From: Ruditapes philippinarum | Lineage: Eukaryota | NCBI RefSeq assembly: GCF_026571515.1 | Contig: NW_026860638.1 | Coordinates: 1-64,000, forward strand | Length of the DNA stretch: 64,000 nucleotides | Direction: 5' to 3' | In this document: one piece after another, positions 3,628 to 45,268 of the stretch | Layout of the letters: each line of letters begins with the position of its first letter | How positions within the stretch are numbered: position 1 is the first letter of the stretch | Translations under genes and position numbers: made by a program | The notes under the pieces: generated by a model | The model's input: the letters and a program-made list of their open reading frames with translations, nothing else | The model's database searches: none | What the model was told of the DNA's origin: nothing

Positions 3628-4968
3628 TATTTATAATTATATTCTATTTTATTCTGAAGAAGTTTCAAATGTAAGAAAAATGTATTATGTTATCAGACGG
3701 ACGGAAGTCGTGTACCTTCATGGCCTTGCGCTTGCACAACGTACGAGAAATATCCTGAAGCAGTTGTTGATCTCGGGCTGCCGTTTGCCATCACTGCAAT
3801 GTACATAGTAAACAGGGGAGACTGTTGCCGTGAGTGTATTATTGCACCTTTTGTAAAATAACTGTCATTTTAGTGTTCTTAAAGGTTATATAAATTATGA
3901 CTGTTTAAAAAGAAGAAAAGTTTGCCATAATAATTATCAAAGCAGCCAAGAACACCGCCAGAGGACACTTTTCAAGGTTTAGGTTTAGTCATTGTTCTTT
4001 TTTGTCATTGCTGCCCAGTAATGATATAAAATGCAATGTTACAGTTTTGTGGTTAATTACTTAATTAATGCGTTTTTTTCCAAGTTACTGTATGTCAATT
4101 TTGTTTTCCAATTGGTTGGTAAATCAACGCACACGAGGGAAAAGGCACAATGTTTCATCAAATAAGAAACAGAACATTTATAGTAACTTCTGCAATTATT
4201 TTAGTATTCTTATAGAACCATTTGATATTTATAAATATATATATTTGAAGCAAAAGGTTGTAGATGATATGCCTGTCTTCAATTATTCACTTGGAACTGG
4301 TAATGGGAGTTACATGTTTATGCATTACAATTCAACAGTGGAATTTATTTTTTATTTGTGTAGCAAACATGATGATATCATAATTTAAGAAATCATTTTT
4401 GAAAGTGCACGCTGCATGCATTTGCAGTGAGATCCTGTGTGGCTGGATTTTTCCTGGAACTGTGTTCTGTGAATGTCATCATCTTTTGTCGGACATAATT
4501 CAGAGTGAAATATGTAAAGATGCACAATTATTAAACAAAATGTCATTTGATGTAATTTTAAAAACCTCTTCAAATACATAATCAAATGTTACATGAAAGA
4601 AGAGATTTTCATTTTTTTTCTTCTCAGGAATTATGCCGAAATATGACATGATACAGCCATAAACTGAGCTGCTACAAGATCACTCTTAAATGAACATTTG
4701 CATTTAGTGTTCTTATCTTTGATTGATCTTATATTATAACCCAAAATATTAATGTTTATGTTTTTCAGCTGAGAGATTACATGATCTCGTTATCCAGGTA
4801 GGGGACGACATGTCAAATCTGAAAACAATTTTTAACAATACTGGCGCAATTGGTGCAACCTGCACAGTCTTATTTGATAAACAGCAACAAGGACGCTACG
4901 TCAAGTTGTACATTGAAGGAACATCATTTCTGACTGTGTGTGAACTAGAAGTCTACAGTAGCGGATAA
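377..4968 (+). CDS. Secreted PAN/apple + F-type lectin (fucolectin, F5/8C-like fold) protein, paralogue 1; 5 exons, ~260 aa
   Basis: Exons 377-574, 1043-1175, 3161-3279, 3697-3829, 4769-4968, all with GT..AG introns and compatible phases (783 nt). Hydrophobic N-terminus. PAN-type CGSICEET-NCSSFTF...CTLY. F-type lectin hallmarks NVALNKPVSLSS, TDG, VVDLG, NRGDCCPERL, GRYVKL, LTVCELEVY. Confidence 0.88.
2761..2838. repeat. Imperfect inverted repeat, probable MITE fragment in intron 2
   Basis: cactgttttgagttcggatgcgag ... ctcgtacatctgaacttcaaacactg are approximate reverse complements. Confidence 0.4.
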
Positions 4969-7900
4969 ATGCTCATCAAGCAATCTGACCTATGTGTTGG
5001 TTACTAGCATTTTCAAACAGACATGTAGCATTTAATTTTTATTCGCGGTTTCAAAGATTAAGCAAACGCACTGCATAGATGGAAACATACGATGGATACA
5101 TGAAAAGTGTTCCAATTCTCTTTAATATCTATTGTACTCAATTCCAATGTTTTACACTTCTTAGCAATGAGAGTTGCTATAAGTTTTAGTACTCAAAATA
5201 TGTTAAACATTTCATCAAATCTTACGCATTAGTTCATTTGAAACAACACTGATAACGGATTTCGTATCAACTGTAGGCCTGACATGGAACTTTTAGAATC
5301 TGCAGCAGTGAAGCTCTTTGTTCTTTGTACGTGTTGGCATACAAATGGTGAAATATATATGAACCGTCTTGTGATGTATAGAAGATGAGCGGGAACCTAT
5401 TTGAGTTTAGACATCATTGTGATCATTGTGTCCTGATAAGCATAATTTACTTTTAAATCGATTGCATTGGCAATAAATCAACCGCTTTGTTATACAATAA
5501 CAAGTTTTACAAAAATCAATTCTAAAAAAATATTTTCAGTGTAGATAACAGTTGTCCATTGAAATCATCTGAGCAAATTGTAAACACCAGAACAATGTAG
5601 AATAAATATCGTTATTTCAAAAAGCTAAATATTTAATTGATTAAATAATTTCAAGTCAATAGTGGCGGACTTTATTGACTGTAACATTATCTTTTTTGTC
5701 ACTGTTGAGCTGAATCTGAATAAGTAACATATTTTAGGAAATTTACTATTATTATGGTGATTAATAATTGATTATAAAAAAATGTTGACAATAAAGAGTA
5801 AATCTCTTTAATTACAAGAGAGACTGCCCCACACTACGATACTGATTCGTTTCGAATTATATTTTTAGAAATATCCACGGGTAACGTGGATAATTGTTTT
5901 TTTGCACAGTAAATTATAATATTGAACGCAATAATGGCAAAAACTAAAATGGACCTACCTGTGCACCCACCATTTACACTTTGATGGGCATAATTTTGGT
6001 TAAATACGAAGTGTGTTTGTGCATCTATAAATAACAATTGCAAACAAATGAAGGGAAAAAATAGCCAATATAAAAGCTGAGCCTTTTACGTTTTCCTGCA
6101 AATATCAAATTGTAAAAGTGTGATAAATTGCCTGATAAACTTCGTACATTTTCTTTGTTTTTATAAATAAACGGTCTTCAGCTAATTCATCACTGCATCA
6201 TTACGTTCCGATAATTGTCTGACCGAATGCCTCTTCACGTTGTCTTTATTAATTATAAATTGCATACAGTTTATTTGATATTCTCGAGTCGTCTTCGTCA
6301 AATCAAAGTAGGTATTTGTATATAGGATATCGACCGAGTACAAAGTCTTTCTGTTCAGGAGAGACCCTGTGACGAATTTTATGAGACACCGAGCTCACGT
6401 AGCGCTAGATGTGTTTCATGAAATTAAACAAAATGAATAAGTGCATACAATTGCTGTGACATTCATCTTTAACCACCGACATTATGAATTTTCCCAATGA
6501 AAATGTTTTCATTTTAGGATCATTCGTGAAGATGACGATCTGACTACTGTTTTGAAGGCCACTTTTGTGTTTTGACAATATTGCTAAGTACAATTACGCA
6601 TTTAAAACATTTGACTTTTCACATCCGGTATACGTTTGACATTTGCAAAACCATTAGTATAACATTATTCTTGAAGGAAGCAGATAAAATATGCTTCAGC
6701 TGCTTTTCATCAGGTAGCTAGCGTTGCTTCGACGCATTATAAACGAAATAGCATAAGTCCATAGCATAAATATAACCTTCTTAACGCTTACAGTAAACTG
6801 CATAACTATACCACTTTCGTCGTTTTAGACGTAAATTGGTTTGATACCCTATTGTTTACACCGTTTGCACCAATAAAAGTGTCATCAATTAGGCGTACCC
6901 AAGTTTACACTGAAGCCGACTATATTATTAGAAATACATAGTCTAAGAAGTTTAAAAAAAATTATATAGTTTTATTGATAATGCGTTGTTAGTTAAATAA
7001 TTCAAGATGTTTCCAAAGTTTGATTAAAGCAACATTCGGCTCTTTTTTTATCGCTGTTAAGATTGGTTGAATAAGTAATATATCTCAAGAATTTGACTAT
7101 TTTATAAGTAATTGACTAATAAATGGAACTCATAAAAGCTTAGGGTAAAATATAAAAACTATCTTAATAAATTATAAAAAAAAATCAACGTTATCGATTG
7201 ATTTGTAACAATAGTAAAAGAAAAAGAAAATTCCATAGGCTATTTGGATTGTTGGTTATTTTAGCATTATGATAGTGAAATATAAAATTGAACAAAATAA
7301 CGCTATTGTAATAGTTGTGATGATGATAATTATTACTTTGTTCCTGAATCTTTTATTTTTTCTTAAAATCACTGTTTTTTGTTAGTATAATTATTTAAAC
7401 TGGTGGCATGCAGCCTTCAGGTAGAATAATGTTTTCGATTACTGCATGCACAAAATCGAAGAAAATCCTACTTAGAATAGTAATTGGATATTTTCAGGTG
7501 TGCGTTAAATTTAAAAGCTCATGATTGGGGAACACCAAGACAAATAGATGATTGAAAAATAAATACTTAGAAATACATAGAATGTAATTAAAATTTAATT
7601 AAACTTTGCATAAACTCAAAATATGATAACAGAAACATATTCAGCGGAAACAAAGTTATATTAAATAGTGTAAAAAATCACAGTGGGAACATTTTGAAAA
7701 AAAAACAACAACACTTGTTCTCCATGTTCTCGTTTTAATACCTAAGCTTTGCATTGTAACCTTCTAATTCCTTTTACAATCATTTAAATGTAAATAGTCA
7801 ATATTTTGTGCGCTTCATTGTTTTTTTAATCTTTCACGACTTCAAAAAATTAAAACATAAGCTTATTTACCCTTTCTTGTTGACAGAGTGTTGGATTAGA

Positions 7901-10261
7901 ACACTTGTCGATTTTGGATCATTCGTCAGTTGCATGATGTGCTACCATTGCATAATTAATGGAAAAATCTTTTATGATCCTTTTTCGGATGCAAGTGTAA
8001 TGGGTACAACACGACGAACAATAAAACATTCATAATCATAAATCCCTCTTTTCTGATTAATTATGCATTGCTTTTAGCTACATAATGCCGTACAATATAT
8101 GAGTGGCAATGTACTTTTTAAATCATGTTTTATGTGTTCTATGTATATTGTTGTATGTATGTACATTGATGAGACTAAAATAAAGATTGAATATATATAC
8201 AATTTATTCTCTATCTCTAGTTTTCACACTCTCGTATTGTTTGTGAAACCAAGGCTGATTAACAAAGTTTTTACACTTTTCTATATTTTTCTTTTGCATT
8301 ATAGATGTCTGTATTGAATAAAAAATAAAAAAACGCCTGTAGACTTTTATTATCCATTTTCCTTTTATTTCTATTTGCACTGTTTTGTGATTCTTTTAAT
8401 GATACTGTCAATATTGCATATGGTTGCAAATTTCATAAAGTAAACATGAACAAAAATATAATAGGGGCACCTCAATCTAAATAGGAGTTGTCTTACATTG
8501 AAGAAACATATATTTTGTATGTTTATAATCAAATTTTTTATATGTCTACAAAAATGTTGTTCCCTTAGCTACAATAAGTTATTATGTCATTGTTATGCAA
8601 GCATTGCTAACATCTTATATAACAAGATATACGGCAGCTTGTAAATTAATCATTGGCGGAGGCAGATTTTTCAAAAGTATTCTCAAAATGTCGTGTACCT
8701 TTCTGAAGGTGAAAAAATATAGCATGATATATTACATGTATTAGAAACAGGGATGATCTGAAATCAAGGAACGGAATATAGCCAGACAATCACGTGGAGT
8801 GTGAGATAAGCTCATGTAAGATAAGATTTTCTAGCAATGCTATTCTTGTCGGTCGTATTAAATGCATGCTACAGTCCACTGTTTAAGCAGAATTCATCTT
8901 TTAACATGAGAATTGTAAAATTTTGAAGTTATGAATACATACGCAGGTGTGTTTATACAACGGATATCATTATTTTTCAATGAAAACATGAATTAAATGA
9001 GATTTCAACAGTCTGACATATGCAAATGTAAAGGTATCCTACATTCTGCAGTAATGTATCAAATGATGTTATGACTGTTTTACTTTACACCTTTGGTGCA
9101 TCTAGATATAATCTGGAAAATACATGTATAGTAAGAAGTTTAACGTCTAGTAAAATTATGGTTAATGGGTTTCAAAGATTAAGTTCAGTATATGAAACGA
9201 CATAACAAATATTTTTTCAAAACCCAAAATACAAAAATTATGCATGATTAGTACAAATAGCCTTGAGTACTAGCGTTGCGACATTTAGGTCCTTGATCCG
9301 ATACTGTTAATGTTAGGTATTGAATACCGCTTAGGTTGCCACTGGGAGGCATATTTAGTTTTGCATTTAAACACATGAAAAGCCTCAATGAAACTGTGTT
9401 TGTCCTCTTTCAAAATATGTACAGGGAGAAAATGCCAATAGCGTTTAGCTTGTTTGTGGCCAGAAACATGTAATTGTTGCTCTGTTAAGCATCAAAGTAA
9501 TCATAAATTTGAATTCAGGGATCTATATTATCGTTTTATTATTCATGGGATAATCAATCAAATCACAATGTTTGTTGTTCCGTTTCAAGAGCAGTTGAAA
9601 ATAGTTAATAAAACATAAACATTTCAGTAAAATAACTGAACAAAATGTAAAGATGTGTTTTAATACAAATGTATTTTACATGTTTAATTTATTAAGCGTA
9701 ACAATCAGTCTTTGCTACAGTCCCCGTAGGTTTGATTACAAACAATAAAATCATCCGCAATCATTTGATTTGCAAATTAGCATGCATTAATGATATACCT
9801 GAGAACGGCCAAAACGGCAATTGAAAATATTGCAGTTAGACTCGACTTTATTCTTACTTTTTCTATTCCTTCCTACTTTTAAACCTGGGTCAAACTGTTT
9901 ACTAATTTGAAAATAGACTGTTTATCCATGATCTTGTTTTCAAAATGAATGTAACCAAATATGACAACTGACTTTCATCATATGATCTGTAGTTCATGTA
10001 TGAAAGCAAATTGTTTCACCTTGTGACGTCCATTTTTGGTTTTGACAAGTCATCCAGTAATTTACTGACGATTAAAGATATGTTTGTTTCCAGCATAGAC
10101 AGAACTAAAGATACAAACATTACTAGTGTCGTTTTGCTGTTAGCATAATACGGTAATTTCAAACTAAATTGTAAATAAAACATTTCTTTTATCCCTACGT
10201 TTTAACATACAAATCGTTAATTTGTCCTACTGTTAACTCAAAAGAGTCCTACATTTCCCTT

Positions 10262-10962
10262 TGTCGTGAATTTCCTTTTAATTGTATTTTATAATCCAAG
10301 ACATTGGAAGAAAGAACACATTTCCTTCTTGAATATTAATTTAATTTATAACACAACACGTTTTAATCCAATTAAACTATTTTATTTAATCATCACAAAT
10401 ATAATCCAATTATTTGACTTATTTGACTTAAACAATTTCATTTAATAATCACAAATATAATCCAAGTATTTAATTTAACAACCTTTATTAACAAATCAGT
10501 CTAACTTATTTTATTTCACCCACAATTAACTATATTTATGTCCCTATATATATAGCAAAACTTTCCCGCCTTTATAATTAAGCATGGCAAGAAAAGCATG
10601 TAAAACATGAAAACATAAATATCTCGTGCACAATAATTCACCGTCGGGGAACTAAAACAATAGGTTGCACGTGAAAAACCTTGAACTGACTGATAAAATA
10701 CGTGCAAACATGAATACATAAATATATCGTGTACAATAATTCACCGTCGGGGAACTGAAACAATAGGTTTACTAAATGCACGTGAAAAACATTGAAGTAA
10801 CTGATTAAAATACGTGCAAAATGCTACTATATCTTCACCGTCGGATAACTTAACAATAAAACTTTAAAGACACGGTGATATATGATGTAACTTACAAAGA
10901 AAATATTTCTTGATAAAAATAGTAGTATATTAAAATACATGTATATCGCAATATCTGCGACA
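10262..10962 (-). repeat. 3' LTR (701 bp)
   Basis: Direct repeat of 18527-19225 with TG...CA ends. Preceded on the - strand by a short purine run GGGAG (weak PPT, ~10963-10967). Confidence 0.96.
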
Positions 10963-11208
10963 CTCCCGACGAAGAAGATAAACTTAACAAATGTTTATAA
11001 CAAACATAACTAGATGTATTTAAAACTTTCTGTATTTTTCAATTCTTAGAATTAGTGAAAGTTTAAACTTACATTTAATACATTTTACATATGAAATATA
11101 TTTATTTTTAACAATTCCATTATTAATACCCACATATATACAAACAAGTTAATATAGTTATATGCAGTTCATTGTTCATATTCTTTTTGAATATCCTTTA
11201 AACTTAGT

Positions 11209-12408
11209 TCATTTTATCCATCGATCACCAGTTACATATTCTTCTTCATGTATTATATCATTCCCTCTGTAAGTATACACTGTTCTCCATGTCAAACAAT
11301 GGTACAAAGTTATTCGTCTTATGTCGTGTGTAGTTTCAAGCGCACTTTCATCTATATTAGTTTCATTGTCACTTATCAAAATGACGTCATCATTATTACT
11401 GTTTACGTCATCATTACTAAAGCTATCATCGCAATCATCACCACTGACTTCTCCATTTAAACTAACATCATTATCAGTATGTTCATCACTATCATTAGTG
11501 GATTTAATGTCAAGATTCTCATTTTCACTGTCAGCATTCATATTTGAATTCGCGTCATTCTCGCAATTTGTACTGACGTCATCTTCGTAATCGTCGCAAT
11601 TCGTATACTCGTCATCCTCGCAATTTATATGCACGTTATCCTCAGATTGGGAATCTGTTGTGTCAACTTTAGCATAAACATCAGCATTTAATTCATTTAT
11701 ATTATTGTCGACGTCATCAATGTCGCTTGTATGTTTAAGTTCATCATTTTCAATAATATTGCCATCATTATAATTCAAATCTAATTCATCATGACTTGTG
11801 TCGTTAGCAACAGACTGAATTTTCATTTTATCAATACTGTCGCTATAATCATAAGCCTTTGTACTTTCATTATCATCTGTTGCTGTCAGTTTATTATCAT
11901 TGACGTCACTTCTTGTTTCATCATAACAATCAATGCTTATATCTGGGTCTTGACCAATGTCGAAACTTTTTTCTGATTCTAATTCTGCACTAGAAATGTC
12001 ACTATAAATAGCATGACTAAGGTTTTCAGAATTAATTTTGACTTCAACTGTTACTATGTCTTTGTTGTTGTTGTTGTTGCTGCTGTTGTTGTTGCTATCT
12101 ACTTTGCAGCTATCGTCGAGGAGGTTAATGTCAAAGTCATTGATTTTTTCTTGAAATGTGTTGTTACTCCCTCTATCACTGTAAAGAACATATTGTCTCG
12201 CTTGACCCAAGGTAAAATCATGCACGTGAATTAAATGATTTTTTAAGTATCCTTTCCTTATAAAGGTAGATTGACATCCATTTACACCACAACGATATCT
12301 TCTTAATGCTGTATGTTTTTCAACCTTGTGCCGTCTAAGACTCCTATATTGTTTATATTCATTTGAGCATTCGTCACACATGTATCGTTTGAAATTTTTC
12401 TCATACAT
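11209..12408 (-). CDS. Retrotransposon accessory ORF2: two N-terminal C2H2 zinc fingers plus D/E/N/S-rich acidic region (399 aa)
   Basis: YMCDECSNEYKQYRSLRRHKVEKH and YRCGVNGCQSTFIRKGYLKNHLIHVH fit the C2H2 consensus. The ORF is intact, lies between the pol stop and the 3' LTR, and is on the same strand as gag-pol. Confidence 0.85.
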   Translation of the reverse strand: MYEKNFKRYMCDECSNEYKQYRSLRRHKVEKHTALRRYRCGVNGCQSTFIRKGYLKNHLIHVHDFTLGQARQYVLYSDRGSNNTFQEKINDFDINLLDDSCKVDSNNNSSNNNNNKDIVTVEVKINSENLSHAIYSDISSAELESEKSFDIGQDPDISIDCYDETRSDVNDNKLTATDDNESTKAYDYSDSIDKMKIQSVANDTSHDELDLNYNDGNIIENDELKHTSDIDDVDNNINELNADVYAKVDTTDSQSEDNVHINCEDDEYTNCDDYEDDVSTNCENDANSNMNADSENENLDIKSTNDSDEHTDNDVSLNGEVSGDDCDDSFSNDDVNSNNDDVILISDNETNIDESALETTHDIRRITLYHCLTWRTVYTYRGNDIIHEEEYVTGDRWIK

Positions 12409-12710
12409 ATTTGAGGCTTGTTGAAATCGTTTTAATAGTCTATCTCTCAGAACAGTATTTCAAATTATGCTCATGAATGTGTACAGTATAAACAAGCACG
12501 AATGTTTTCACAAAATTACGATTTTTCGTTAATTCACGTGCGAAATAAAAGACACTAAATCGTTTGCACCGGTGGTGTATAATGATAACTTGCTGTAGTT
12601 TCACGCAATTTTACTGAATTTCGAGAATCTGAAAATAGTAAAGAAAACAACTCACTTATTTCAAATAATTTCGTGATTGATTGTTATAACTATTTTATAA
12701 CAATATAGGC

Positions 12711-15700
12711 TTATTGTGAAGCTTTAATTATTTCTTTAATCTTAAGTTTTGCTTTAGTCGCAGCGTTTCTTTCTATTTTTTGTGTAGAATTATACTCTGT
12801 ATTGTGTTTTATTTCACTCGGTTCAGATATAATTCTATTCTCTGAAGTTTCTAACGGATATAGTAAGTTTAACGGTCTCCCTATAACCCGACCAGACGAC
12901 AATCTGATTTTTGCGGACCTTATTTCTCCGTCGAAACTAGTTGGCAATTCGACAATTTTCCCAAGTTTCCAACAATTGCGTGGTAAATCTTCTTTTATAT
13001 GTACTACGTCACCAACAAATGGTGTTGTTGCTGATTGTATTCTACCACATTTTAGTTTTGACTGAGTTCTTTCCCTTAGACTTAAAAGGTAGTCATTACG
13101 CCATAATTTCCAAAATGAATCAAGAAGTTTATGACCTTTTCTCCACAATTTTAGAATATCAGCTTCAGAGCTTTTGAAAGGAAAATACTCAGAATCACTT
13201 TCGTCATTTTTCTGCAATTCAGGAAGACTTATATTCCATTTCAATGATAAGAAATGTCCAGGTGTAATTGTTATACAAGAGTCTATATCTTCCTCTACAT
13301 AAACGAGAGGCCGAGAATTAATAACAGACTCTGTTTCTTTTAACAATGTTTGAAGTTTAACACTTGTAAGTAATGTGCGACCAATTGTTTTACGAAGTGT
13401 TCGCTTTACAAGTCCTACTAATCTTTCATAATAGCCTCCCATCCAAGGTGATAGTTCGACTATAAATTTCCACTTTATTTTGGCATTTGATGCGTAGTTT
13501 TGAACATCTTCAGATATCAAAACATTTTTCAAAACATTCTCTAAAGTTTTGTTTGCCGCTTTGAATTGCAATGCATTATCGCTTATCACCATTTCTGGTG
13601 TTCCTCTCTGAGCAATAAATCTTCTAAATGCCAATAGAAATTCTTCAGTTGTCATATCTTCAACCATTTCTAAATGAACGGCTCTTGTCACTAAACAAGT
13701 GAATAAACATATCCAAACCTTCTTAGGGTCCTTTTCAGTTTTTATGAACAATGGACCAAGGTAATCAAGACCAGTTCTAAAGAATGGTGTTGATTCCGAT
13801 ACTCTTAATTTTGGTAAAGGTGGCATATCGGGCATTTTATAAGGCCCTCCTTCAACACGTCGACACGTGTAACATTTTTTAAGAACTGACTTAACAGTTG
13901 CACGACCTCGAACAAGCCAATAGTTGCAACGTAATTTACTCAATGTTTGAGACACACCGCTATGCAAAATTTCAGCATGTGTCTTCTGTATCAACAATTT
14001 CGTAAAAGCTTCATTTTTTGGAACTAATACTGGATATTTTGCTCCAAATGTGAGGTCTGAAAGTTCAATGCGCCCTTTACATCTGATAAGTCCAATTTTA
14101 TCTATGAATAATCCAAGTTGATGTTGCAAGTTATCCCTTTTATGTGTCTTCAATGCATTAAGGGTTTCGGCAAAATGTTTCTTTTGTATATGTTTTAGCC
14201 ATAGAGTTTCTGAATTTAGTAATTCGTCACTAGTGAGAAAACCTGATAATATGTTTGATCCTTTTCGAACATTTATGAGAAATCTTGTAACATATGCTGT
14301 CACCCTTAGTAGTTTCGTCATGGACGAATAATTATCAATGTTCATACCATAAGGTGCAAGATCCGAATTGACACATACATTCGTGATTGTATCATTTTCG
14401 GATGTGTTTACTTTAAAGGGAACAACGGCAACTGATAATTCATCTGAACAATTCTTGTTAATGTCATAAGTTGGCCAATCTGACTTTGGCAAGGATAACC
14501 AATTAGGTCCATGCCACCACATATTATTATTCTTTAGATTGGTAGTACTTGAACCTCGTGATGCTATATCAGCTGGGTTCTCGTAAGTTGGAACATATCC
14601 AATAGAGACATCTTCATATTTATTGATTTCATGCACTCTATTTTTTATGAAAACTGGTTGATCTTTCTTTGAATTTATCCACTGCAAAACACATTGTGAA
14701 TCGGTCCACAAGAATCTTTTATTGATGTTCAATCTGAGTTGATCATTCACAAAGCGTAAAGAACGAATTCCAATAACAACAGCCATGATTTCTAATTTTG
14801 GTATAGTGAGTGGTTTTACTGGAGCGAGTCTTGCCTTTGAAAAAATAAGCTCGGTTTTGATTTTAGAGTTAGATTCTTGATGAAGATAAATTGAACATGA
14901 GTATGCCTTTGCCGAAGCATCACAGAAGCATGCAAGTGTATTTTCAATATGTTCTTCATTTTTGTGATCTAACGTTACACAACGTTGTAACATACAATGA
15001 CTTATTTCTACCAAGTCATCCCTAATTGATTTCCATTCAGAGCTTTCTTTGTCATCTATTTCGTCATCCCAACGTAATCCTTTACTCCATAATGTCTGGA
15101 TAAGGATCTTTCCCTGTAGCACAATCGGAGAATATAGACCAAGCGGGTCAAAAACCGATGCAACCAATTTAAGAACATTGCGTTTTGTTTCCTTTCGTTT
15201 TGTATTTTCAGTAACAATAATTGGCTTGATTGAGAGAGTGTCTGTTTCAGTATTCCAATTATGTCCAAGCACCTTAATTATACCAGGATAAGCTCTATCT
15301 TTTGGTTGTATAAATGTATTAACTGATTCATCATTTGTTATCCATTCTCTCAGATTCATGGATATTTCATCAAAAAGTGACTTTGCATCTTTATAAAGTT
15401 GCATAGCTTCTGATTTCGAGTTTGTTCCAGTAACTAAATTGTCGACATAAATGTCGTTTTTCAGTTTTTGTGCTGTTTCACTACCGTTTGATTCAAGATG
15501 ACTTTCTATTGTAGCACCAAGCAAAAATGGTGATGATATGACTCCAAACGGCACTCTACAGAATCTATATTCTATTATGTTACTTTTTTCAAAAATGGGT
15601 TTATTGAAATCCTTAACCCACAAGAAGCGAGTTACATCCCTATCATTAGGCTGAAGGCCTATTTGTAAAAACGCTTTCTCTATGTCAGCGACAATAGCTA

Positions 15701-18485
15701 TCTTATGAAGTCGAAACCTCATAAGCATTCCACAGAGGTTGTGTAACATAACAGGTCCTCTATACAAGTTTTCATTTAAACTTTTGTCACTTTGTTTTGT
15801 TTTGGCAGACGCATCATACACAATGCGTAATTTAGTTGTTGATTTAGATGGTGTTACAACTGCATGATGGGGAATATAATGGACGAGACCATTTTCTCTA
15901 GTTTTGTTATCTACCTTTTCAATTATTCCTTTTTGTTTTTGGTCTTCGATCACATTATCATACAGTTTCATCATTTCAGGTTTTCGTTGCAATTTGGATA
16001 GAACAGATTTAAGTCTACCATATGCTAATTCACGATTGACTGGAAGAATTGGTTCTTCATCTTTCCATGGCCATGCCACTTGATATCGACCATCATTAAA
16101 ACTTAATGTGTCTTTAAAATGCCTCATGGCATTTTCATCATTAGAAATATCAGGATTGTCAAGGATACCAATCGACTCGATATTCCAGAAATCTTCTAAA
16201 TTTGGTTTAATGGGTATCGAACTATCAACACTTGTGAAAGTATTTGTATTTGCTGAGATATTTCCTTGAGTAAATATCAACATATTGATTTCTTTACTTT
16301 CTTCATCGTGATCATTCTTTGTACGTCCACTTAATATCCAACCACATTTTGAACTTAGTAAATATAATCCAGGTTGAATCTCTAATTTCTGACACAATAC
16401 TATATCTAAGTAGTAGTCATTTCCTATTAGCATTTCGATTTCACATGATTCATTTTCACTTGCAATTGTGTCAGCTAGATCAACAGTTTTCAGAATATGA
16501 TGTGCATTTTCTGAAAGCTGACCGATAGGTTTTCTTTGAATTGTGCCACTGATAACAGGCACTATGTTCACAGACATATCAAGCTGTTTATCACTTTTCA
16601 ACATAAGAGTTATGGACGATAACTTTGTTGTTATATGTTTTGATTTATTAGTACCAAAGGTCATAACATTTATCTCTTCTGTACCTTCTGCTTTCAAATC
16701 CAGTCGTTTTGCCAATGCTTCAGATACATATGAACGCTGTGACCCTGAATCAAGAAGTATTCGTATTTCTTGCTTTTTACCATTTTTTGGATTATTTACA
16801 GTTGTTGTCACTGTTTGCATAAGTATCATCTTATCAGATGAAACCATTCCAATTTCTGGTAAAATACGTACTTCTTGTGATGTTTCAGTAGCGTTTTTAT
16901 TATTGCATTGTTCATTGATCACTTCTCTTGATAGATGTGAACTTGTATTTGAAGCTTTGAATTTAGTTGGGCACAAGCTTCTGTGATGACTATTTCTGTC
17001 ACCACAATGTGCACAAATTTTTCCTCGTTTACATTCGGTTGATTTATGCCCGAATTTAAGGCAATTGAAACAACTATTTTTCAGCATTCTTTTTCTTTCT
17101 TCTATAGATCGGTACTTAGGGCATTCATCACTCCAATGCCCCTTTTCGCAATATCTACATAATGTAGAATAATCTTTACGAACAGTATTAGTGTTCACAG
17201 AGCCTTTTGTATTTCTATTATCAGCCATGAGAGCTTCACCGGAAGTTATTTTATTGTTTTCGCCATTGAAATCTCTTCTAGGTGTAGGTCCTTTGGGACC
17301 GTAACTAGTAGAATGTTCCCTAGGACCAAAACTATTATAAGGTCCTCTCGGGCTAAGACTTGATATCATCCCCTGTGGGTATCTTTGAACGTTATCACGA
17401 ACATTTCTTTGTAAACTATATGGTTTTAACTTATGTTCTACACTACAACTTTTCTTTTCAGATCTCTCACGGGCCACGATATAATCATTTAATCTATCAC
17501 GTAATGTTGCTAAAGTCCATTCTTTCTTAGATCCGTTAGACATCTCAAGATGTAACAGCACGTTTTCTGGTAGTTTTGCTCTTATCATAGCAATAAACAC
17601 ATCTTGATTGATATCTTGTCTTAATGCCTCTAAACTACGAAGATGTTTTTCGATTTGATCAACAAAACACCTAAGACTATGCACATTATTGGATGCACTT
17701 TGAATATTTATCAATTTGTTATAGTGCAAATCTATAACTTCCTGTGCATTTCCATATCTTTCCCGTAATAATTTGATAGCAACATGGTAATTGTCACCAG
17801 AAAGCTCTAAACCTGATATTGCACTTCTAGCTTCTCCATATAGTTTGCTTCGTAGATAATTGAACTTTTGAATATCGTAAATATCTTTGTTACTGTGAAC
17901 TGTGGTATTAAATGTATCCCAAAATTCACACCACTTCAACTTATCGCCATTGAATGAACACATGTCTAACTTTGGTAATTTAACGTTCATTGTTTTATCA
18001 GAATCTTTCTTTTCCTGACGTTCAAAAAAAGCTTGTTGCAACGTCATTTGATTCTCTTGTTGCTTCATTTGTGACACAACAAGATTTTGAAACTCATGTT
18101 GCAAATCAATCATTTCTTTATATTCAGAGGAAACATTTGGTTTTTCTTCCTCTTTTCGAAGCCTTTCTTTAATTCTTTTCAGATGCATTTGACAATCAAT
18201 TGCTTCTGAATATAATGTTTCATTCTCTTCAGCAATCGTTTGTAAAAACTCTGTATTTTCCGGTTCAGACTCGGATATTACAGAAACTAGTTTTTCCGAT
18301 TGCATTTCAATTTTTGAAACATATACATCTATTTTTTCAATGAAGCTCTCAATTGAATCAAGAGCATCACTACTTTCCATATCATAAACATCGGTATGGA
18401 CAAATTGTTTACCTTCTAAAATCAAATTAGAAAGTGTATTCCTAAATCTTGTTCGCACACCTTTGATATAAGGCACAGAAGACAT
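12711..18485 (-). CDS. gag-pol: BEL/Pao Gag-Pol polyprotein (DUF1759-type gag, three Cys/His knuckles, aspartic protease, RT, RNase H, integrase), 1924 aa
   Basis: KLPKLDMCSFNGDKLKWCEFWDTF. CRYCEKGHWSDEC / CFNCLKFGHKSTEC / CAHCGDRNSHHRSLC. LLDSGSQRSY (protease). ADIEKAFLQI...VPFGVISSPF...YVDN (RT). FCDASAKAY...KARLAP (Pao RNase H). H..ILHSG...CYTC, GLDYLGP, ISDNA, GGYYERLVG (integrase). Confidence 0.97.
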   Translation of the reverse strand: MSSVPYIKGVRTRFRNTLSNLILEGKQFVHTDVYDMESSDALDSIESFIEKIDVYVSKIEMQSEKLVSVISESEPENTEFLQTIAEENETLYSEAIDCQMHLKRIKERLRKEEEKPNVSSEYKEMIDLQHEFQNLVVSQMKQQENQMTLQQAFFERQEKKDSDKTMNVKLPKLDMCSFNGDKLKWCEFWDTFNTTVHSNKDIYDIQKFNYLRSKLYGEARSAISGLELSGDNYHVAIKLLRERYGNAQEVIDLHYNKLINIQSASNNVHSLRCFVDQIEKHLRSLEALRQDINQDVFIAMIRAKLPENVLLHLEMSNGSKKEWTLATLRDRLNDYIVARERSEKKSCSVEHKLKPYSLQRNVRDNVQRYPQGMISSLSPRGPYNSFGPREHSTSYGPKGPTPRRDFNGENNKITSGEALMADNRNTKGSVNTNTVRKDYSTLCRYCEKGHWSDECPKYRSIEERKRMLKNSCFNCLKFGHKSTECKRGKICAHCGDRNSHHRSLCPTKFKASNTSSHLSREVINEQCNNKNATETSQEVRILPEIGMVSSDKMILMQTVTTTVNNPKNGKKQEIRILLDSGSQRSYVSEALAKRLDLKAEGTEEINVMTFGTNKSKHITTKLSSITLMLKSDKQLDMSVNIVPVISGTIQRKPIGQLSENAHHILKTVDLADTIASENESCEIEMLIGNDYYLDIVLCQKLEIQPGLYLLSSKCGWILSGRTKNDHDEESKEINMLIFTQGNISANTNTFTSVDSSIPIKPNLEDFWNIESIGILDNPDISNDENAMRHFKDTLSFNDGRYQVAWPWKDEEPILPVNRELAYGRLKSVLSKLQRKPEMMKLYDNVIEDQKQKGIIEKVDNKTRENGLVHYIPHHAVVTPSKSTTKLRIVYDASAKTKQSDKSLNENLYRGPVMLHNLCGMLMRFRLHKIAIVADIEKAFLQIGLQPNDRDVTRFLWVKDFNKPIFEKSNIIEYRFCRVPFGVISSPFLLGATIESHLESNGSETAQKLKNDIYVDNLVTGTNSKSEAMQLYKDAKSLFDEISMNLREWITNDESVNTFIQPKDRAYPGIIKVLGHNWNTETDTLSIKPIIVTENTKRKETKRNVLKLVASVFDPLGLYSPIVLQGKILIQTLWSKGLRWDDEIDDKESSEWKSIRDDLVEISHCMLQRCVTLDHKNEEHIENTLACFCDASAKAYSCSIYLHQESNSKIKTELIFSKARLAPVKPLTIPKLEIMAVVIGIRSLRFVNDQLRLNINKRFLWTDSQCVLQWINSKKDQPVFIKNRVHEINKYEDVSIGYVPTYENPADIASRGSSTTNLKNNNMWWHGPNWLSLPKSDWPTYDINKNCSDELSVAVVPFKVNTSENDTITNVCVNSDLAPYGMNIDNYSSMTKLLRVTAYVTRFLINVRKGSNILSGFLTSDELLNSETLWLKHIQKKHFAETLNALKTHKRDNLQHQLGLFIDKIGLIRCKGRIELSDLTFGAKYPVLVPKNEAFTKLLIQKTHAEILHSGVSQTLSKLRCNYWLVRGRATVKSVLKKCYTCRRVEGGPYKMPDMPPLPKLRVSESTPFFRTGLDYLGPLFIKTEKDPKKVWICLFTCLVTRAVHLEMVEDMTTEEFLLAFRRFIAQRGTPEMVISDNALQFKAANKTLENVLKNVLISEDVQNYASNAKIKWKFIVELSPWMGGYYERLVGLVKRTLRKTIGRTLLTSVKLQTLLKETESVINSRPLVYVEEDIDSCITITPGHFLSLKWNISLPELQKNDESDSEYFPFKSSEADILKLWRKGHKLLDSFWKLWRNDYLLSLRERTQSKLKCGRIQSATTPFVGDVVHIKEDLPRNCWKLGKIVELPTSFDGEIRSAKIRLSSGRVIGRPLNLLYPLETSENRIISEPSEIKHNTEYNSTQKIERNAATKAKLKIKEIIKASQ

Positions 18486-18503
18486 TTTATTTTATTGGTT
18501 GTT

Positions 18504-18521
18504 TCCCGGGTTCCGGCGCCA
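18504..18521 (-). promoter_or_regulatory. Primer-binding site, tRNA-Phe-like
   Basis: The - strand reads TGGCGCCGGAACCCGGGA 5 nt inside the 5' LTR boundary. It matches 16/18 of TGGTGCCGAAACCCGGGA, the complement of the metazoan tRNA-Phe 3' end as recalled. Confidence 0.75.
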
Positions 18522-18526
18522 CTCAA

Positions 18527-19225
18527 TGTCGTGAATTTCCTTTTAATTGTATTTTATAATCCAAGACATTGGAAGAAAGAACACATTTCCTTCTTGAATA
18601 TTAATTTAATTTATAACACAACACGTTTTAATCCAATTAAACTATTTTATTTAATCATCACAAATATAATCCAATTATTTGACTTATTTGACTTAAACAA
18701 TTTCATTTAATAATCACAAATATAATCCAAGTATTTAATTTAACAACCTTTATTAACAAATCAGTCTAACTTATTTTATTTCACCCACAATTAACTATAT
18801 TTATGTCCCTATATATATAGCAAAACTTTCCCGCCTTTATAATTAAGCATGGCAAGAAAAACATGTAAAACATGAAAACATAAATATCTCGTGCACAATA
18901 ATTCACCGTCGGAGAACTAAAACAATAGGTTGCACGTGAAAAACCTTGAACTGACTGATAAAACACGTGCAAACATGAATACATAAATATATCGTGCACA
19001 ATAATTCACCGTCGGGGAACTTAAACAATATGATTACTAAATGCACGTGAAAAACATTGAAGTAACTGATAAAATACGTGAAAAATGCTACTATATCTTC
19101 ACCGTCGGATAACTTAACAATAAACTTTAAAGACACGGTGATATATCATGTAACTTACAAAGAAAATATTTCTTGATAAAAATAGTAGTATATTAAAATA
19201 CATGTATATCGCAATATCTGCGACA
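18527..19225 (-). repeat. 5' LTR (699 bp) with TATA-like TATATATA (~18810-18819) and tandem U3 repeats
   Basis: About 9 substitutions and 2 single-base indels versus the 3' LTR. Followed on the - strand by the PBS and the gag ATG. Confidence 0.96.
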
Positions 19226-20299
19226 CCCTTCTTTTCCCCAATCTTTTGAGAAATATTTTTAGGAAGACGGTAAAAAGCTTTGATCCAAATCTGTTTGAAC
19301 GTTGACGAGCTTTATACGTATAAACAATTATATAGTGAACGTTATTCTTTGGTAGATAAGAAGGCTAAAGCAGTGAAAAAGAAATGAAAACAAGACCCAC
19401 GAGGAAGGGGTGCGTTAAACGCACCCCAACAAAAATTAGGAACACAGGTTATAGGCGATTAATGATAAATAACCTTTTTAACTTCATATATTCTATTATG
19501 GAGATGTGCCTTTTGTATCTTTTGTACAAACAAAAAACAGAAACATAGTCTGCATACGTGTTTCTTGAATATACGGACATTTATACAGAACGCCTTGTCA
19601 TTTCTCAAGCACGCATGCAAGCACAGTAACACACGTACATATCACTTTTTAACAGTAGTTGTCACGCCCGGTTTAGGGTATTCTAAATTAAATTTAGAGT
19701 GATGCCTCCGATCAATACTATTCAAAGCCTTGTTAGTGTTTTGTCATGGTCAATTATCTCATTATTCGAATCTTAATCGAAACAAAATATGAAATGATGG
19801 AATATTCTCTGTCAAATACAGGTTCAGAAGTGATTTGTGCTGAAGAAGAAAACAAATTTAGATTAAAACAAAATCAACAGAAGGTCAGAGATTATCTCAA
19901 TATTACTATTTGATATTATAAACCTAAGTTTTAAAACTGATTTTTTAGCTGTAAATTCTATTTATTAATTAAATGGTTATGTTAATTAAAGGCAGAATTG
20001 CTATTTCATTAATTTTTAAATAATGTTTAATTCATTACAATCGACAAAGCAGCGTTTCGTGGATGATAGCGACCCAGTAGTGAAGGTGTTGCAGTCATAT
20101 TGTTTATTCGCTATAGGCAGTGTACATCTGTGTCTGTCTGATAATTTTATTTATTTTATTGTGAAGAGGTTCTCAATTACTTTTTAACTCGGTGTTTTTT
20201 CTGTTTTTTCAAGTTTTACTATATGTTACAAAGAAATTTGCATAACTAGATTAGAATAAATATTAATTAATACAATTTTACTTGAAGAAATATCAAACG

Positions 20300-27319: not shown

Positions 27320-29177
27320 TGGAAAACAAGCACAACAGTTACTAGTATTTTGATTCATTTCAATGATTGAGTTTCGTCTTTATTATTTCACTCTATATGA
27401 TAAGTGCATGTTTGAAATTTCAATATTAATCTAAATTAACAAAATTTTGATTTGTCAATTGATATCGCCCGAGAGAGTAATCGACTAGAACAAAACACAA
27501 AAGCTGTTCAAACTATGCAATCTCGGATCACAATTGAACATAGAGTACCGCTGAAGCCAGTACTACGGAGCTTGAAAGATGATGCACCTTTTACAATCCC
27601 TCATGTACAGACTCGATCAAACAGAGTCTGTAATTTTCAAGTACTTTTATTGTGATAAATGCTTCCGAGGGATCACACTTTATCAGATTTTTTATACTTC
27701 ACAACAGCAGCTGTAAAGTACTGTGTGGCAGCTGTACAAAGTTGCCCCGTACTTCACTTCAATGTTGGTATATTTTTCTGGTCCATCGGGATCATTGATT
27801 CCAGCTCTTTTGAGTGTTAGAAATTGAGGACATGTGTGTAAAATAAGGTATAATGAACATTCCTATCATTAAAAACCAGTAAATCGTAATAAATTACGGA
27901 AAAGACTGTCGATAATTAATGAGTCTCAGGTCAATATTGCCAAACAATATTCAAACAGTGTTTCACAAACCTTATGTATGCGATAGACATTAAAGAAAGA
28001 CCATGGCAGAAATATAATAATTTATTTATATTGAACACCTTTCTAGTATAAAGTTCAATAAATATTTATGACAGAACATAATACAAAATTAACGTGACAT
28101 TTTGATTTCAATTACAAAATCGTATGGTAGTGTTATAATAGTGTCTATTGTTAGTTAGATGGAAGTCGTGGTGGCATATCTCCATGTACTCATACAGAAC
28201 GCAAAACAAATCCCTACTCCACTAGCTGATCTGTTATATTACTGTAATTTGTTTGGTGGATGAAAGTCGTAGTAGTATATTTCCATGTGCTCACAAAAAA
28301 CGCGAAACCAATCCCTACGCTGTTAGTTGATCTGTTTTAATATTGTTTATTGTTAGGTGGATGGAAGTCGTAGTGGTATATTTCCATGTGCTCACACAGT
28401 GCGTGAAACAGATCCCTACGCCATAGTTGATCTGCTTCAGACGTTTCAGATCAGTTCCATGTATATTGTCAACCGTTCAGACTGCTGTGGTAAGTAGTTG
28501 TGGGTATATTAAAATTTTCCTTGCTGTCATCGACACTGATGAGCCTTTGCTACAAGTAAAGAGCCAGGCCAACCATCCATTTAGGCTTGCCAGCCTCTGA
28601 ACCATTGGTAGCTCAGTTTTTGTATTGTTATTTTAATATTCCTAAAACATTAAAAATTGACTGATTACAATTCTAAGCAGGATTAATCCATAAAACATGT
28701 TAATTTAGTAGGTTAAAAGTGTATCATCTTTGCAATGTTATATATATATCTACTGCATGTATCAAGAACACACACGCGCACGCACGCACACACACAAACG
28801 TGTATGCTGAAGAAAGTAACAAAATGGATCAAACTTATCATATATAGTTTTGCAGTGTTGCTAAAATATAAACTTTGATGTTTCTAAGACATACAATTTA
28901 AAACGGCAACCCGCATTTTATGTTTCGTCAGTCAATGCATTTTATATAATAAAACACATTTTAAACTCTATTTACAGGTGAGCGACTGCGACAACTCGTT
29001 ATTAAGGTAGGCGACAATTTGACCAGACTTAAACCAGTGTTTAACCATACTGCCGTTATTGGTGCAACCTGCACGATCTTATTTGATGAACAACACCAAG
29101 GACGTTACGTCAAGTTGTATATTGAAGGACTTAGTTCTCTGGCGGTGTGTGAACTAGAAGTCTACAGTAGCGGATAA
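20300..29177 (+). CDS. Secreted PAN/apple + F-type lectin protein, paralogue 2; 5 exons, ~254 aa
   Basis: Exons 20300-20497, 21691-21811, 23908-24020, 28357-28489, 28978-29177 (765 nt), with the same intron phases as paralogue 1. Motifs CGALCDEK-ECKSFIY...CTVY, NIALHKPVTLSS, CAHT-...-NRSDCCGERL (H-X26-RXD-X4-R), GRYVKL, LAVCELEVY. Confidence 0.88.
22141..22225 (+). repeat. Degenerate tRNA-like/SINE head fragment
   Basis: A-box-like tagtcaagggg and B-box-like ggttcaaatccc followed by a T-run. No intact cloverleaf. Confidence 0.35.
24270..26710 (+). mobile_element. Degenerate CR1/L2-group LINE (endonuclease + RT remnants) in intron 3 of paralogue 2
   Basis: Remnants YYRP (~24292), GNFNLP (~24370), DFDKVSH (~25532), VTSGVPKGSVLGP (~25671), AKYLG (~25947), with many stops and frameshifts. 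Confidence 0.8.
27271..27314. repeat. (TA)n microsatellite
   Basis: Perfect TA run. Confidence 0.95.
28140..28440 (+). repeat. Three 101-bp tandem copies of the intron 3 acceptor + 5' half of exon 4 (two pseudo-exons, then the real exon)
   Basis: Exon-start equivalents at 28155, 28256 and 28357. Copies 1 and 2 run into TGA at 28227 and 28328. Confidence 0.9.
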
Positions 29178-29660
29178 ATTATCAACAAGCAATTTGACCT
29201 ATGTGTTACTTGGATATCTTAACATATATGATATAATTGCTATATTAATAATTGAACTATAAGTCTACATTGGCAGATAAATGCTCAATAAGCAACCTGA
29301 CCTCTGTGTTACTTAGATATCTTTACATATATGATATAATTGCTTTATTATTTGAACTATAAGTCTACAGTAGCGGATAAATGCTCAATAAGCAACCTGA
29401 CCTGAGTGTTACTTGGATATCTAAACATATATTATGTACTTGCTATATTATTTGAACTTTAAGTCTACAGTGGCGGATAAATGCTCAACAAGCAATCTGA
29501 CCTATGTGTTACTTTGATATCTTAAACATATATATGATATACTTGCTAAATTATTTGAACTATAAGTCAACAGTGGCGGATAAATGCTCAACAAGCAATC
29601 TGACCTATGTGTTACTTGGATATCTTAAACATATAAATGATATACTTGCTAAATTAATTG
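29151..29660 (+). repeat. Five ~100-103-bp tandem copies of the last codons, stop and proximal 3' UTR of paralogue 2
   Basis: Units gaacta..aagtctacag.agcggataaat start at 29151, 29254, 29354, 29454, 29557. Confidence 0.92.
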
Positions 29661-43523: not shown

Positions 43524-45268
43524 ATGCTAAAGTTAACAGGATATATAATGCACAATTTGTGTTTTTTATTCTTATGTGTTTTGATGGTAGATTCAATACC
43601 TTTAAGGGGAAGAGTTGATATCATCGAAAAAAGAATTGGTGTGGTTGAATCACGAATGAATTCTGACAATGAACTGGCAAGAGAAATGTTTTTGTCGCTC
43701 CAACAAAATTTTGAGGACCTTAACAGTTCTATGATCAATCTTAAGAATCAAATGTGCCCTATCATGGACCAATGTGGAGTCAAAGAGGATCAGAGTGATT
43801 CTGAAAAAAATGTTGAAATTCTACAGTCAAGTCGAGTAATGATGACCTTAGGACTAAAGAGAGAGAAACAATGGGTACGAGATCAAGTAAAAAAACTTTT
43901 TACTCAGATGGGTGAACATTCCGATCGGTTAGATCAAGTGACAAAAATGGAATCCGATGCTTATATAGAGATTAACAAAGCATGCATGGTTATGAGTTCG
44001 CAGCAGAAAGAAATAGAAGCTCTAAAGGAAACCCGAACTAACCTTTTAAATGCTTTAATTTCTAAAAACGAGGAAAAATATGATTATACATGTCCACCAG
44101 ACTGGAAAAAATATTCATCATTTTGTTATTTGTTTTCCGAAGATATAATGAAATTTGATGAAGCACGTGCTTATTGTAAACTTCTAGGTGCAACTGTGGC
44201 TGATTTTAAGAATCAAGCAGAGAATGATGTTATTGCTGATCTCCCAAAAGTTTTGCGTTTTGCTTGGATTGGTTACTCTGATGAGGAGAAAGAGGGTACT
44301 TGGATCTCAGAAAGAACTGGCCAACCTGCTTCTTTCACGTACGTTAATATGATCTAATCTTAATATATACACAAATCATTAGATAAATCTTATATGACTG
44401 ATATTCATTTTAGTAGTTATACATAACTTTCTTGCTTTCGGTCTGTGTATTTCTACAAGATACAATTATAATAGGTAACGGCGGTGTTAATGACTGGATA
44501 ATTGATACAACCATTAACTTTCCTTTGTAGTAGTATTTTCGATCACGGTAGTCTTGGAAACAGATAACTGCTGTATGTCAAGGTATAAATACCACATCTT
44601 ATCATATTTCGATATTTCTTTGTTTTGAAATATTTTTGATAACCATACAGACTCAAGGTCCCATATTCAATAAAAGTAGAAAACATGTCTTAAGACATAA
44701 CTATGACCTATTATGATACATAGCAGAGACTAGGGCAATGAATAACATTAATTTTTGCATATGTCTAGTACATTTATAGACGGAAAGCCTAACAGAACCG
44801 TATGCTAAAGTTTCATCCTATAATTTAAACAAAAGAAGATTTCATTACGAAAGGCAAAATAGCGTTCTAATTATTTACAAACCAAATGATAAATAGAAAG
44901 ACAAAAACAGGAAAAAACCCAAAGAAGTTGCTACCGATATAAAATACCAGTACACATTATTTATGACTTTAAGTTACTTATTGAGCTTTAAGGTAACACA
45001 CATGATAGTTTATCAATAAAGTATACAGCGCATAATCACTTTATAAAAACATTGGTGATAATACCAAAGAAAATGTGTTTTCATAAATAAATATCATATA
45101 AATGTATATTTCAGAAACTTTGCGGATGGTCAACCTTCCGGAGGAATTCACCAGAATTGTGCCGTATTACATTTCTACAACGGTAAATGGCATGACTGGA
45201 CATGTCACTCCGGCGGAAAGTGGCATGTTGTTTGTAAAAAAGATGCCACCATAGAGTTCAAGTTGTAA
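43524..45268 (+). CDS. Secreted coiled-coil + C-type lectin domain protein A (2 exons, ~322 aa; QPS/WHD)
   Basis: Exons 43524-44338 and 45115-45268 (phase 2). Signal-like N-terminus, heptad-rich stalk, CPPDW..CY, ARAYC, WIGYSD, GQPSGG..QNCA...WHDWTC...VVCK. Confidence 0.9.

Follow-up and report, generated by a model that had tools for sequence, protein, structure and literature searches.

Elements of the BEL/Pao superfamily are described as gag-pol retrotransposons, at times with an additional env gene. A stretch of 64,000 nucleotides from Ruditapes philippinarum (contig NW_026860638.1, positions 1 to 64,000; hereafter the window) carries a BEL/Pao element with a further open reading frame, ORF2, in the place of env. 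Is this frame a real gene of the element, how far does it extend beyond this copy, and what might its product do? The coordinates of all features are collected in Table 1. The element is young: its LTRs of 701 and 699 bp are 98.7% alike, with 9 mismatches in 700 aligned positions and 2 indels. TG..CA ends, a 5-bp target site duplication and a primer-binding site, the latter one of two types common to the clade described below, complete the picture of an LTR pair. The single gag-pol frame encodes Pao-type domains (Pao Peptidase_A17, DUF1759, DUF1758, RT, integrase-H2C2, DUF5641) in the order PR-RT-RH-IN, as usual for BEL/Pao. ORF2 starts 302 nt past the pol stop, ends approximately 250 nt short of the 3' LTR and lies on the strand of gag-pol. 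It is the sense frame of 399 codons that the earlier note had placed between pol and 3' LTR.

Table 1. Features of the window element (window coordinates) and of related Gypsy loci (locus coordinates).
Feature	Position	Strand	Remark
BEL/Pao element, whole	10262-19225	-	LTR pair and TSD
TSD CCCTT, 5' side	19226..19230	.	
5' LTR, 699 bp	18527..19225	-	tandem repeats of ~103-111 bp in U3
CCGACGGTGAA, three copies in 5' U3	18902-18908, 19005-19011, 19098-19104 (span 18902..19104)	-	candidate ORF2 sites
GGCGGGAA	18827..18834	-	in LTR; presumed E2F-type site
Primer-binding site	18504..18521	-	
gag-pol, 1924 aa	12711..18485	-	open frame
pol-ORF2 spacer, 302 nt	12409..12710	-	putative internal promoter; CCGGTGCAAA at 12565-12571, CACGTG at 12535-12540
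ORF2, accessory gene, 399 aa	11209..12408	-	
Zinc finger 1, aa 11-32	12313..12378	-	helix position 3 Ser, position 6 Arg
Zinc finger 2, aa 40-63	12220..12291	-	helix position -1 Arg
Motif 1, YSDISS, aa 135-140	11989..12006	-	family form Y[ES]D[IV]S[DES]
Motif 2, VILISD, aa 342-347	11368..11385	-	presumed SUMO-interacting-motif-like
Conserved C-terminal domain	11212..11319	-	
Short purine-ending tract before 3' LTR	10963..10971	-	position of the PPT
3' LTR, 701 bp	10262..10962	-	
CCGACGGTGAA, same three sites in 3' LTR	10637-10643, 10740-10746, 10834-10840	-	
TSD CCCTT, 3' side	10257..10261	.	
BTB-tailed Gypsy ORFs	L138:6587-8449, L139:1010-3307, L141, L142:6619-7878, L143:6874-8508, L145:1725-3419, L149:6557-7528		

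The ORF2 frame is not explained by chance: the other five frames contain 10-92 stops, and none of 2000 base shuffles reached more than 186 open codons. Two C2H2 patterns were found as had been claimed. They show the ligand spacing of classical C2H2 fingers and stand in tandem with a linker of 7-8 residues, which in this family differs from the TGEKP type, and finger 2 is followed by a conserved, probably helical stretch. The Pfam zf-C2H2 model scored the window protein at 20.5 bits, below its cutoff of 25.2, and 7 of 10 relatives above it; zinc fingers were all that the Pfam scans returned for ORF2 and its relatives. Residues 71-365 are indeed acidic (27% D/E, 6% K/R, 55% D/E/N/S). The earlier note had regarded a DNA-binding module together with such a region as typical of transcriptional activators. 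The region does not resemble a plain activation domain; it is a spacer of variable length (whole proteins of the family measure 185-527 aa) with two short conserved motifs. The denial of an env identity stood, as neither signal peptide nor transmembrane helix is present and the highest hydropathy over 19 residues is 0.33. What had been called a short aromatic C-terminal segment exists, and it proved to be more than that, namely a conserved domain of about 40 aa common to the family. This domain matched no Pfam family, no PDB entry and no Atlas feature, with short Atlas matches reaching a TM of 0.56 at most; the Atlas search with L030 returned generic C2H2 clusters.

The window family alone does not allow a judgement on ORF2, since all six related places found by DNA search are incomplete. 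One is about 82-88% alike and broken, one is cut by a contig start within ORF2, two have internal deletions that removed the fingers, one is decayed and one short. In the whole genome, the finger region found 102 places. Of 40 loci examined among the 55 best matches, 36 have a same-strand BEL pol upstream and mostly lie within LTR pairs, which bears out for this genome the expected repeated linkage; L013, L014, L040 and L050 were without BEL pol over the sequence examined. A complete ORF2 of 264-475 aa is present in ten BEL families (window, L017, L019, L026, L030, L035, L041, L043, L047, L048), and these copies are 19-27% identical to that of the window. As a control, 40 BEL elements were picked by DUF5641 (the matches with the longest open frames, best 40 of 150 listed), and 0 of 40 had ORF2. 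Picking blindly by integrase (best 50 of 150 neighbours), 30 elements with fingers, 5 with a C-terminal remnant only and 15 with neither were obtained, the last group indicating that ORF2 is dispensable in cis. A quick tree was built from 91 integrase rows, all from elements of the R. philippinarum genome and with L113 and L038 left out. All 37 rows with ORF2 or a remnant fell into one clade of 52 (SH-aLRT 100), and 0 of the 39 rows beyond this clade had either; L007 was scored as lacking ORF2 despite a decayed finger match. From this distribution, ORF2 is likely ancestral to one BEL clade and was then repeatedly lost. Absence or disruption in sister copies, which had been named as an argument against the gene, is found in part: most old copies are broken, and ORF2 is missing in 15 of the 50 nearest integrase neighbours. 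Ten families keep it complete. Some losses have themselves spread. L104 and L108 (L028 family) share their deletion ends, as do L121, L103 and L106 (L023 family), and the four ORF2-less derivatives with mapped flanks each sit at a different site. Since shared deletions recur at separate sites, these derivatives moved without ORF2 in cis. Two variant forms were also seen. In L091, L092, L097, L100 and L127 an acidic linker and the ORF2 C-terminal domain follow pol and fingers are undetectable, which could be decay or a fingerless form. One BEL family (two copies, L095:7195-7860 and L101:7886-8551) has a 222-aa ORF2 that stops at a hydrophobic motif and lacks the C-terminal domain.

Selection was analysed by dN/dS for 32 pairs of copies; one pair was left out, and in many the divergence was either saturated or too low. 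As predicted for a functional gene, values for fingers plus helix were well below 1 in the informative pairs: 0.12 (0.05-0.24) for window-L011, 0.21 (0.08-0.43) for L030-L036, 0.10 (0-0.43) for L030-L025 and 0.23 (0.07-0.84) for L019-L038. In others the range included 1, e.g., L030-L045 with 0.41 and L030-L037 with 0.36. Behind the fingers, values ran from about 0.3 (near saturation and with uncertain alignment) via 0.60 (0.30-1.10) to 2.0 (0.75-9.2). From these low finger values and the range of the post-finger values, the fingers are under purifying selection and the acidic linker is weakly constrained. Benchmarks from pol were left unused, as the segments were often mis-paired. Neither a near-identical nor an intron-containing host counterpart outside of elements was found among the 40 finger-picked loci. 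A one-off capture of a host gene is ruled out by this result together with the ten diverged families, the spread over the clade and the finger dN/dS. ORF2 is a real, conserved accessory gene family of one BEL/Pao clade.

All evidence for the link to BEL pol comes from the R. philippinarum genome. A single-sequence homolog search with the window ORF2 gave no match at E<=0.001, and relatives outside were found only with profile searches. Among representatives at 50% identity, 80 of the best 150 listed passed the family filter. Of 30 clusters looked up 3 had a name; named relatives are Mercenaria mercenaria XP_045158344.2, several proteins of Dreissena polymorpha and Mytilus edulis CAG2208915.1. 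A scan of metagenome loci with one family member found no relative. Within the R. philippinarum genome the cassette also occurs in a Gypsy family (L050 and relatives) with LTRs of 289 bp, where it is in frame with the C-terminal tail of integrase in L050, L112, L113 and L117; in protein P0136 a similar tail is fused to fingers. L147 of this family has RT and integrase, and its contig ends ahead of the fingers. The ORF2 tree, with 6 of 43 branches starred, gave no direction for an exchange between BEL and Gypsy. Several further observations concern these Gypsy elements. Members of the L050 family (L050:4814-9398, L111-L117, L147) measure about 4.6 kb, most lack RT, their gag-like ORF has two hydrophobic segments close to the N-terminus, and close relatives of their cassette are the Dreissena proteins P0005, P0006, P0185 and P0186. 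At 7 of 20 Gypsy loci a sense ORF behind pol begins with a zinc-finger-like pair, continues as a low-complexity linker and ends in a BTB domain (Table 1); PF02214 scored above cutoff in all six of these ORFs that were scanned, and four of the seven carry an L-[ED]-[ED]-[VI]-S motif past the fingers. Four more post-pol ORFs begin with zinc-finger-like motifs (L136:2271-3020, L150:6844-9024, L151:2127-2963, L153:2668-3270), two of them with Gln/Glu-rich, coiled-coil-like tails.

The two motifs of the linker exceed chance. In a set of 105 non-redundant tails, which includes at least one non-member (P0157), motif 1 occurred in 71, compared to a mean of 1.6 and a maximum of 6 after shuffling, and mostly 23-29 residues past finger 2. 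Motif 2 (V/I-V/I-x-V/I-S/D plus acid), which is SUMO-interacting-motif-like, was found in 28 of the 48 full-length members, against 5.3 (maximum 12) after shuffling, mostly 13-30 residues ahead of the C-terminal domain. In SMRT (YETLpSDSE) and NCoR, Tyr at -4 and acids at +1 and +3 contact the SPOC domain of SPEN (accessible text of PMC9834408; for background on SPOC motifs, parts of PMC10111866 and PMC3424240). Motif 1 is in register with this SPOC-binding motif, with Tyr at -4, a hydrophobic residue at -1, Ser, and acids at +1 and +3. It differs from the C-terminal LSD motif of NCoR/SMRT (PMC9834408 and PMC10111866, accessible parts) by Ile/Val in place of Leu and by its internal, often repeated position. 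The window protein has no motif 1 at the usual place past the fingers, and its copy further on (YSDISSAE) misses the acid at +1. Host SPOC domains are split across exons. Motif 1 resembles the NCoR/SMRT motif and motif 2 appears SUMO-binding-like, a combination as compatible with repression or RNA export as with activation.

To which DNA might the fingers bind? The contact residues are nearly fixed: Arg at position 6 of finger 1 in 78 of 81 proteins, Arg at -1 of finger 2 in 80 of 81, and at position 3 of finger 1 Asn in 68 and Ser in 10. By the finger code, Arg-1, Asn3 and Arg6 should read G-G-A. A post hoc motif, GGAG[CT]A, was spotted by eye in the spacers between pol and ORF2. It is present in 9 of 9 Asn families (21 matches versus 0.87 shuffled) and in 0 of 6 Ser loci, one of which (L015) has a replaced spacer. 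In the LTRs it occurs in 5 of 8 Asn families (19 matches versus 1.25 shuffled), the other three lacking it. The outgroup gave 1 match in 17 LTRs and 0 in 17 post-pol regions, and upstream pol was at background level. The Ser clade of the window has CGGTGCAAA in the spacer at the place of the CGGAGCAAA of Asn families. Each of its LTRs holds three copies of CGGTGAA, which differs from the Asn form by one base at the predicted place. Among 20 loci obtained later, five Asn-family copies match the strict pattern and five Ser-family copies do not. Of eight held-out loci from new families only L161 fits it, five having deleted or replaced spacers; L164 (Asn) carries three copies of GGAGTTT, and the spacer of L170 (Ser) contains no match. 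L156 from the Gypsy family had 0 strict matches, and L171 proved to be a finger gene of the ordinary host type. Pooling the GGAG core with the later families, a rule relaxed after L164, gave 11 of 11 Asn spacers versus 0 of 6 Ser spacers. The naive Fisher p-value of 8e-5 overstates this covariation, because the motif is post hoc and Ser occurs in only two lineages, giving two independent changes from Asn to Ser. An exception is L026, in which position 3 of finger 1 is Lys although GGAGCA is kept. All spacer GGAG matches (29 in 11 families) lie on the sense strand. Upstream of the cassette in the Gypsy carrier (Asn), 11 GGA were counted versus 5.9 shuffled (maximum 9), with no GGAG. A shared k-mer test of each spacer against its own U3 was null (p 0.26-0.43). 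Three to five LTR sites are retained in the ORF2-less copies L096, L104, L108, L119 and L121. The repeated U3 motifs, which covary with the contact residue of finger 1, are plausible ORF2 targets, and we consider it quite likely that the fingers would bind the element's own DNA.

The spacers contain further enriched elements. CACGTG was found in 11 of 15 and E2F-type sites in 8 of 15, compared to 0.8 and 0.9 matches in shuffles; the names E-box and E2F-type are our assignments. An A at -3 of the ORF2 ATG is present in 13 of 14 families versus 248 of 509 internal ATGs. TATA occurred in 7 of 18 spacers, which is not beyond shuffles (maximum 7), and neither a conserved splice donor nor a conserved acceptor (1 of 14 spacers at p<0.05 for the latter) was found. 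Two other motifs were dropped as ORF2 targets in favour of the GG(A/T)G core, since neither visibly covaried with the fingers: CCGNCGG, present in 7 of 14 family LTRs, and GGCGGGAA. The latter is found in 6 of 14 ORF2-family LTRs and 3 of 4 loss-family LTRs, in up to five tandem copies (e.g., L023, L026), and in 0 of 17 outgroup LTRs. In the window LTR it is likely a host-factor site, and its presence in LTRs of the ORF2 clade hints at cell-cycle-linked expression.

The Tas (Bel1) protein of foamy viruses transactivates both an internal promoter and the LTR promoter (accessible text of PMC12789967). We judge it probable that ORF2 is a comparable autoregulator, binding its own internal promoter and U3 and predicted to raise transcription. 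The proposal in the earlier note of a transactivator or anti-silencing factor encoded by the element is supported in part. The spacer would serve as internal promoter, primed by host factors via the E-box and E2F-type sites; the ORF2 protein produced from this promoter would feed back on the spacer and the U3 repeats via its finger pair and, as Tas does, raise element transcription in trans. The acidic linker may reach host chromatin factors via the phospho-Ser motif (SPEN/RBM15 SPOC type) and the SUMO-binding motif. The C-terminal domain may oligomerise, by analogy with the BTB and coiled-coil-like tails on the Gypsy finger ORFs, so that two fingers could hold clustered sites. For copies that retain U3 sites after loss of ORF2, the protein would be supplied in trans. 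That binding has a positive effect is the better bet, if a modest one. The opposite sign, with ORF2 at the same sites repressing via SPEN/NCoR-type or SUMO-dependent silencing in order to limit copy number or to confine expression to the germline, appears unlikely to us. It draws on the register of motif 1 with a motif bound by the corepressor SPEN (PMC9834408, accessible part) and on the several sites reached by the ORF2-less derivatives. However, a mimic of the NCoR motif would presumably compete with NCoR for SPEN instead of recruiting it, and a positive factor would more readily account for intact ORF2 in ten diverged families.

Would the protein act on RNA instead, in the manner of Rev or of CERV from the Caenorhabditis elegans element Cer1? 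The fingers would then bind GGAG in the transcript and motif 1 would recruit RBM15 for nuclear export. The sense orientation of the spacer matches agrees with this reading, the SPOC domains of RBM15/B serve viral mRNA export and bind EB2 of EBV (accessible text of PMC10111866), and CERV is a precedent (PMC10309623, accessible part). The motif is, however, often antisense in U3 (TTGCTCC) and has sites of E-box and E2F type around it, the covariation agrees with the finger code for double-stranded DNA, and CERV is made from a spliced mRNA whereas ORF2 lacks a conserved splice acceptor, all of which makes an RNA role quite improbable. A drift of host transcription factor sites along with the lineages, with ORF2 functional and unrelated to the repeats, could be read from the mere two Ser lineages, the L026 exception and the weakness of the strict held-out test. 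L164 and L170 stood outside motif discovery and obey the Asn/Ser rule at the core, and we regard this as very unlikely. The related notion of a passenger host gene is excluded by the finger dN/dS and by frames that stay open in ten families 19-27% identical, and an intron-containing counterpart was not found among the 40 finger-picked loci. Least credible of all is a steering of integration, comparable to the chromodomain at the end of chromovirus integrase. The Gypsy cassettes in frame with the integrase tail and the fusion in P0136 would suit it, but the BEL gene stands apart as an ORF with a start context of its own, the sites are internal to the element instead of marking targets, and a count over the flanks of 18 insertions gave 0 GGAG[CT]A in 10,373 bp, against a shuffled mean of 4.6. 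Extending the Tas-like reading, two bivalve LTR superfamilies might have evolved transcription factors of a common design (a pair of fingers, a phospho-motif that mimics NCoR, a disordered linker, and as oligomerising tail the C-terminal domain or BTB), with the BEL feedback loop decoying SPEN/SUMO silencing and the site tracking one finger residue; this we offer as a tentative and rather doubtful proposal.

Comparing ORF2 with known systems, Tas (PMC12789967, accessible text) is a regulator encoded, as ORF2 is, at the 3' end of its LTR element. It belongs to a vertebrate retrovirus with env, whereas the ORF2 element has none and its circuit is a proposed one, and the two are likened by layout, not by sequence. 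CERV (accessible text of PMC10309623) is a nuclear protein that an invertebrate LTR retrotransposon encodes as an accessory, and it depends on a phospho-serine, a trait also presumed for motif 1; it exports genomic RNA, whereas ORF2 has C2H2 fingers and candidate DNA sites. VANC of the Arabidopsis VANDAL elements (PMC5735166 and PMC6719617, accessible parts) acts on short, often tandem, non-coding motifs of its own element, and protein and targets co-evolve, as may hold for the ORF2 fingers and their candidate sites. In contrast, VANDALs are plant DNA transposons with family-specific targets and demonstrated demethylation, whereas most ORF2 families share one core site and a chromatin effect would be hypothetical. 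BEL/Pao elements with env (accessible texts of PMC3118150 and PMC13524379) also have an extra ORF between pol and 3' LTR, which there encodes membrane glycoproteins, whereas ORF2 has no hydrophobic segment. ORF2 shares traits with Tas, VANC and CERV and is a member of none of them. Tas is not known as a C2H2 protein.

The family is apparently undescribed so far. In the literature searched no description of the gene was found; an annotation may exist in supplements, subscription journals, Repbase, Dfam or GyDB. The word "zinc" is absent from the main texts of surveys of BEL/Pao (PMC3118150), mollusc (PMC6238403) and annelid (PMC8556966) elements, and the accessible parts of PMC13524379 and PMC10547256 contain nothing on such a BEL gene. 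A clade-wide, selected and probably DNA-binding gene would make these BEL/Pao elements "complex" retroelements with their own regulator. Its two natural finger variants (Asn, Ser) are a directly testable protein-site pair, and since motifs 1 and 2 point to the host silencing or export factors SPEN/RBM15 and SUMO, ORF2 may offer a handle on the silencing of LTR elements in molluscs. The same plan recurs with BTB tails in Gypsy elements of this genome. As ORF2-type proteins are annotated as host genes in RefSeq/GenBank (Mercenaria, Dreissena, Mytilus), some of the zinc-finger genes counted for bivalves may be element genes.

Sequencing runs over the window have no bearing on ORF2 expression either way. 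X22 and X23 (window 10964-19300) are labelled RNA-Seq and look like proximity-ligation DNA, as 57-58% of their reads run on into unlike sequence, with loose ends at GATC. X24 gave 3 reads, in the LTR only, and the X1 contigs, whose RNA nature is a guess, covered 29 of 30 bins and contained no splice joint. A transcript start was not seen in these data. Joints 11254-14967 and 12515-15039 in X22/X23 likely stem from deleted copies in other individuals. Elsewhere in the window, tandem repeats of about 100 bp were noted at 28131-28433 and 29124-29632, with a related 237-bp repeat 24 kb off (4762-5017). Finally, two alike ORFs at 43524-44357 and 51492-52544, with hydrophobic N-terminus, coiled-coil-like middle and an end that we take to be C-type-lectin-like, are a tandem pair of host genes.
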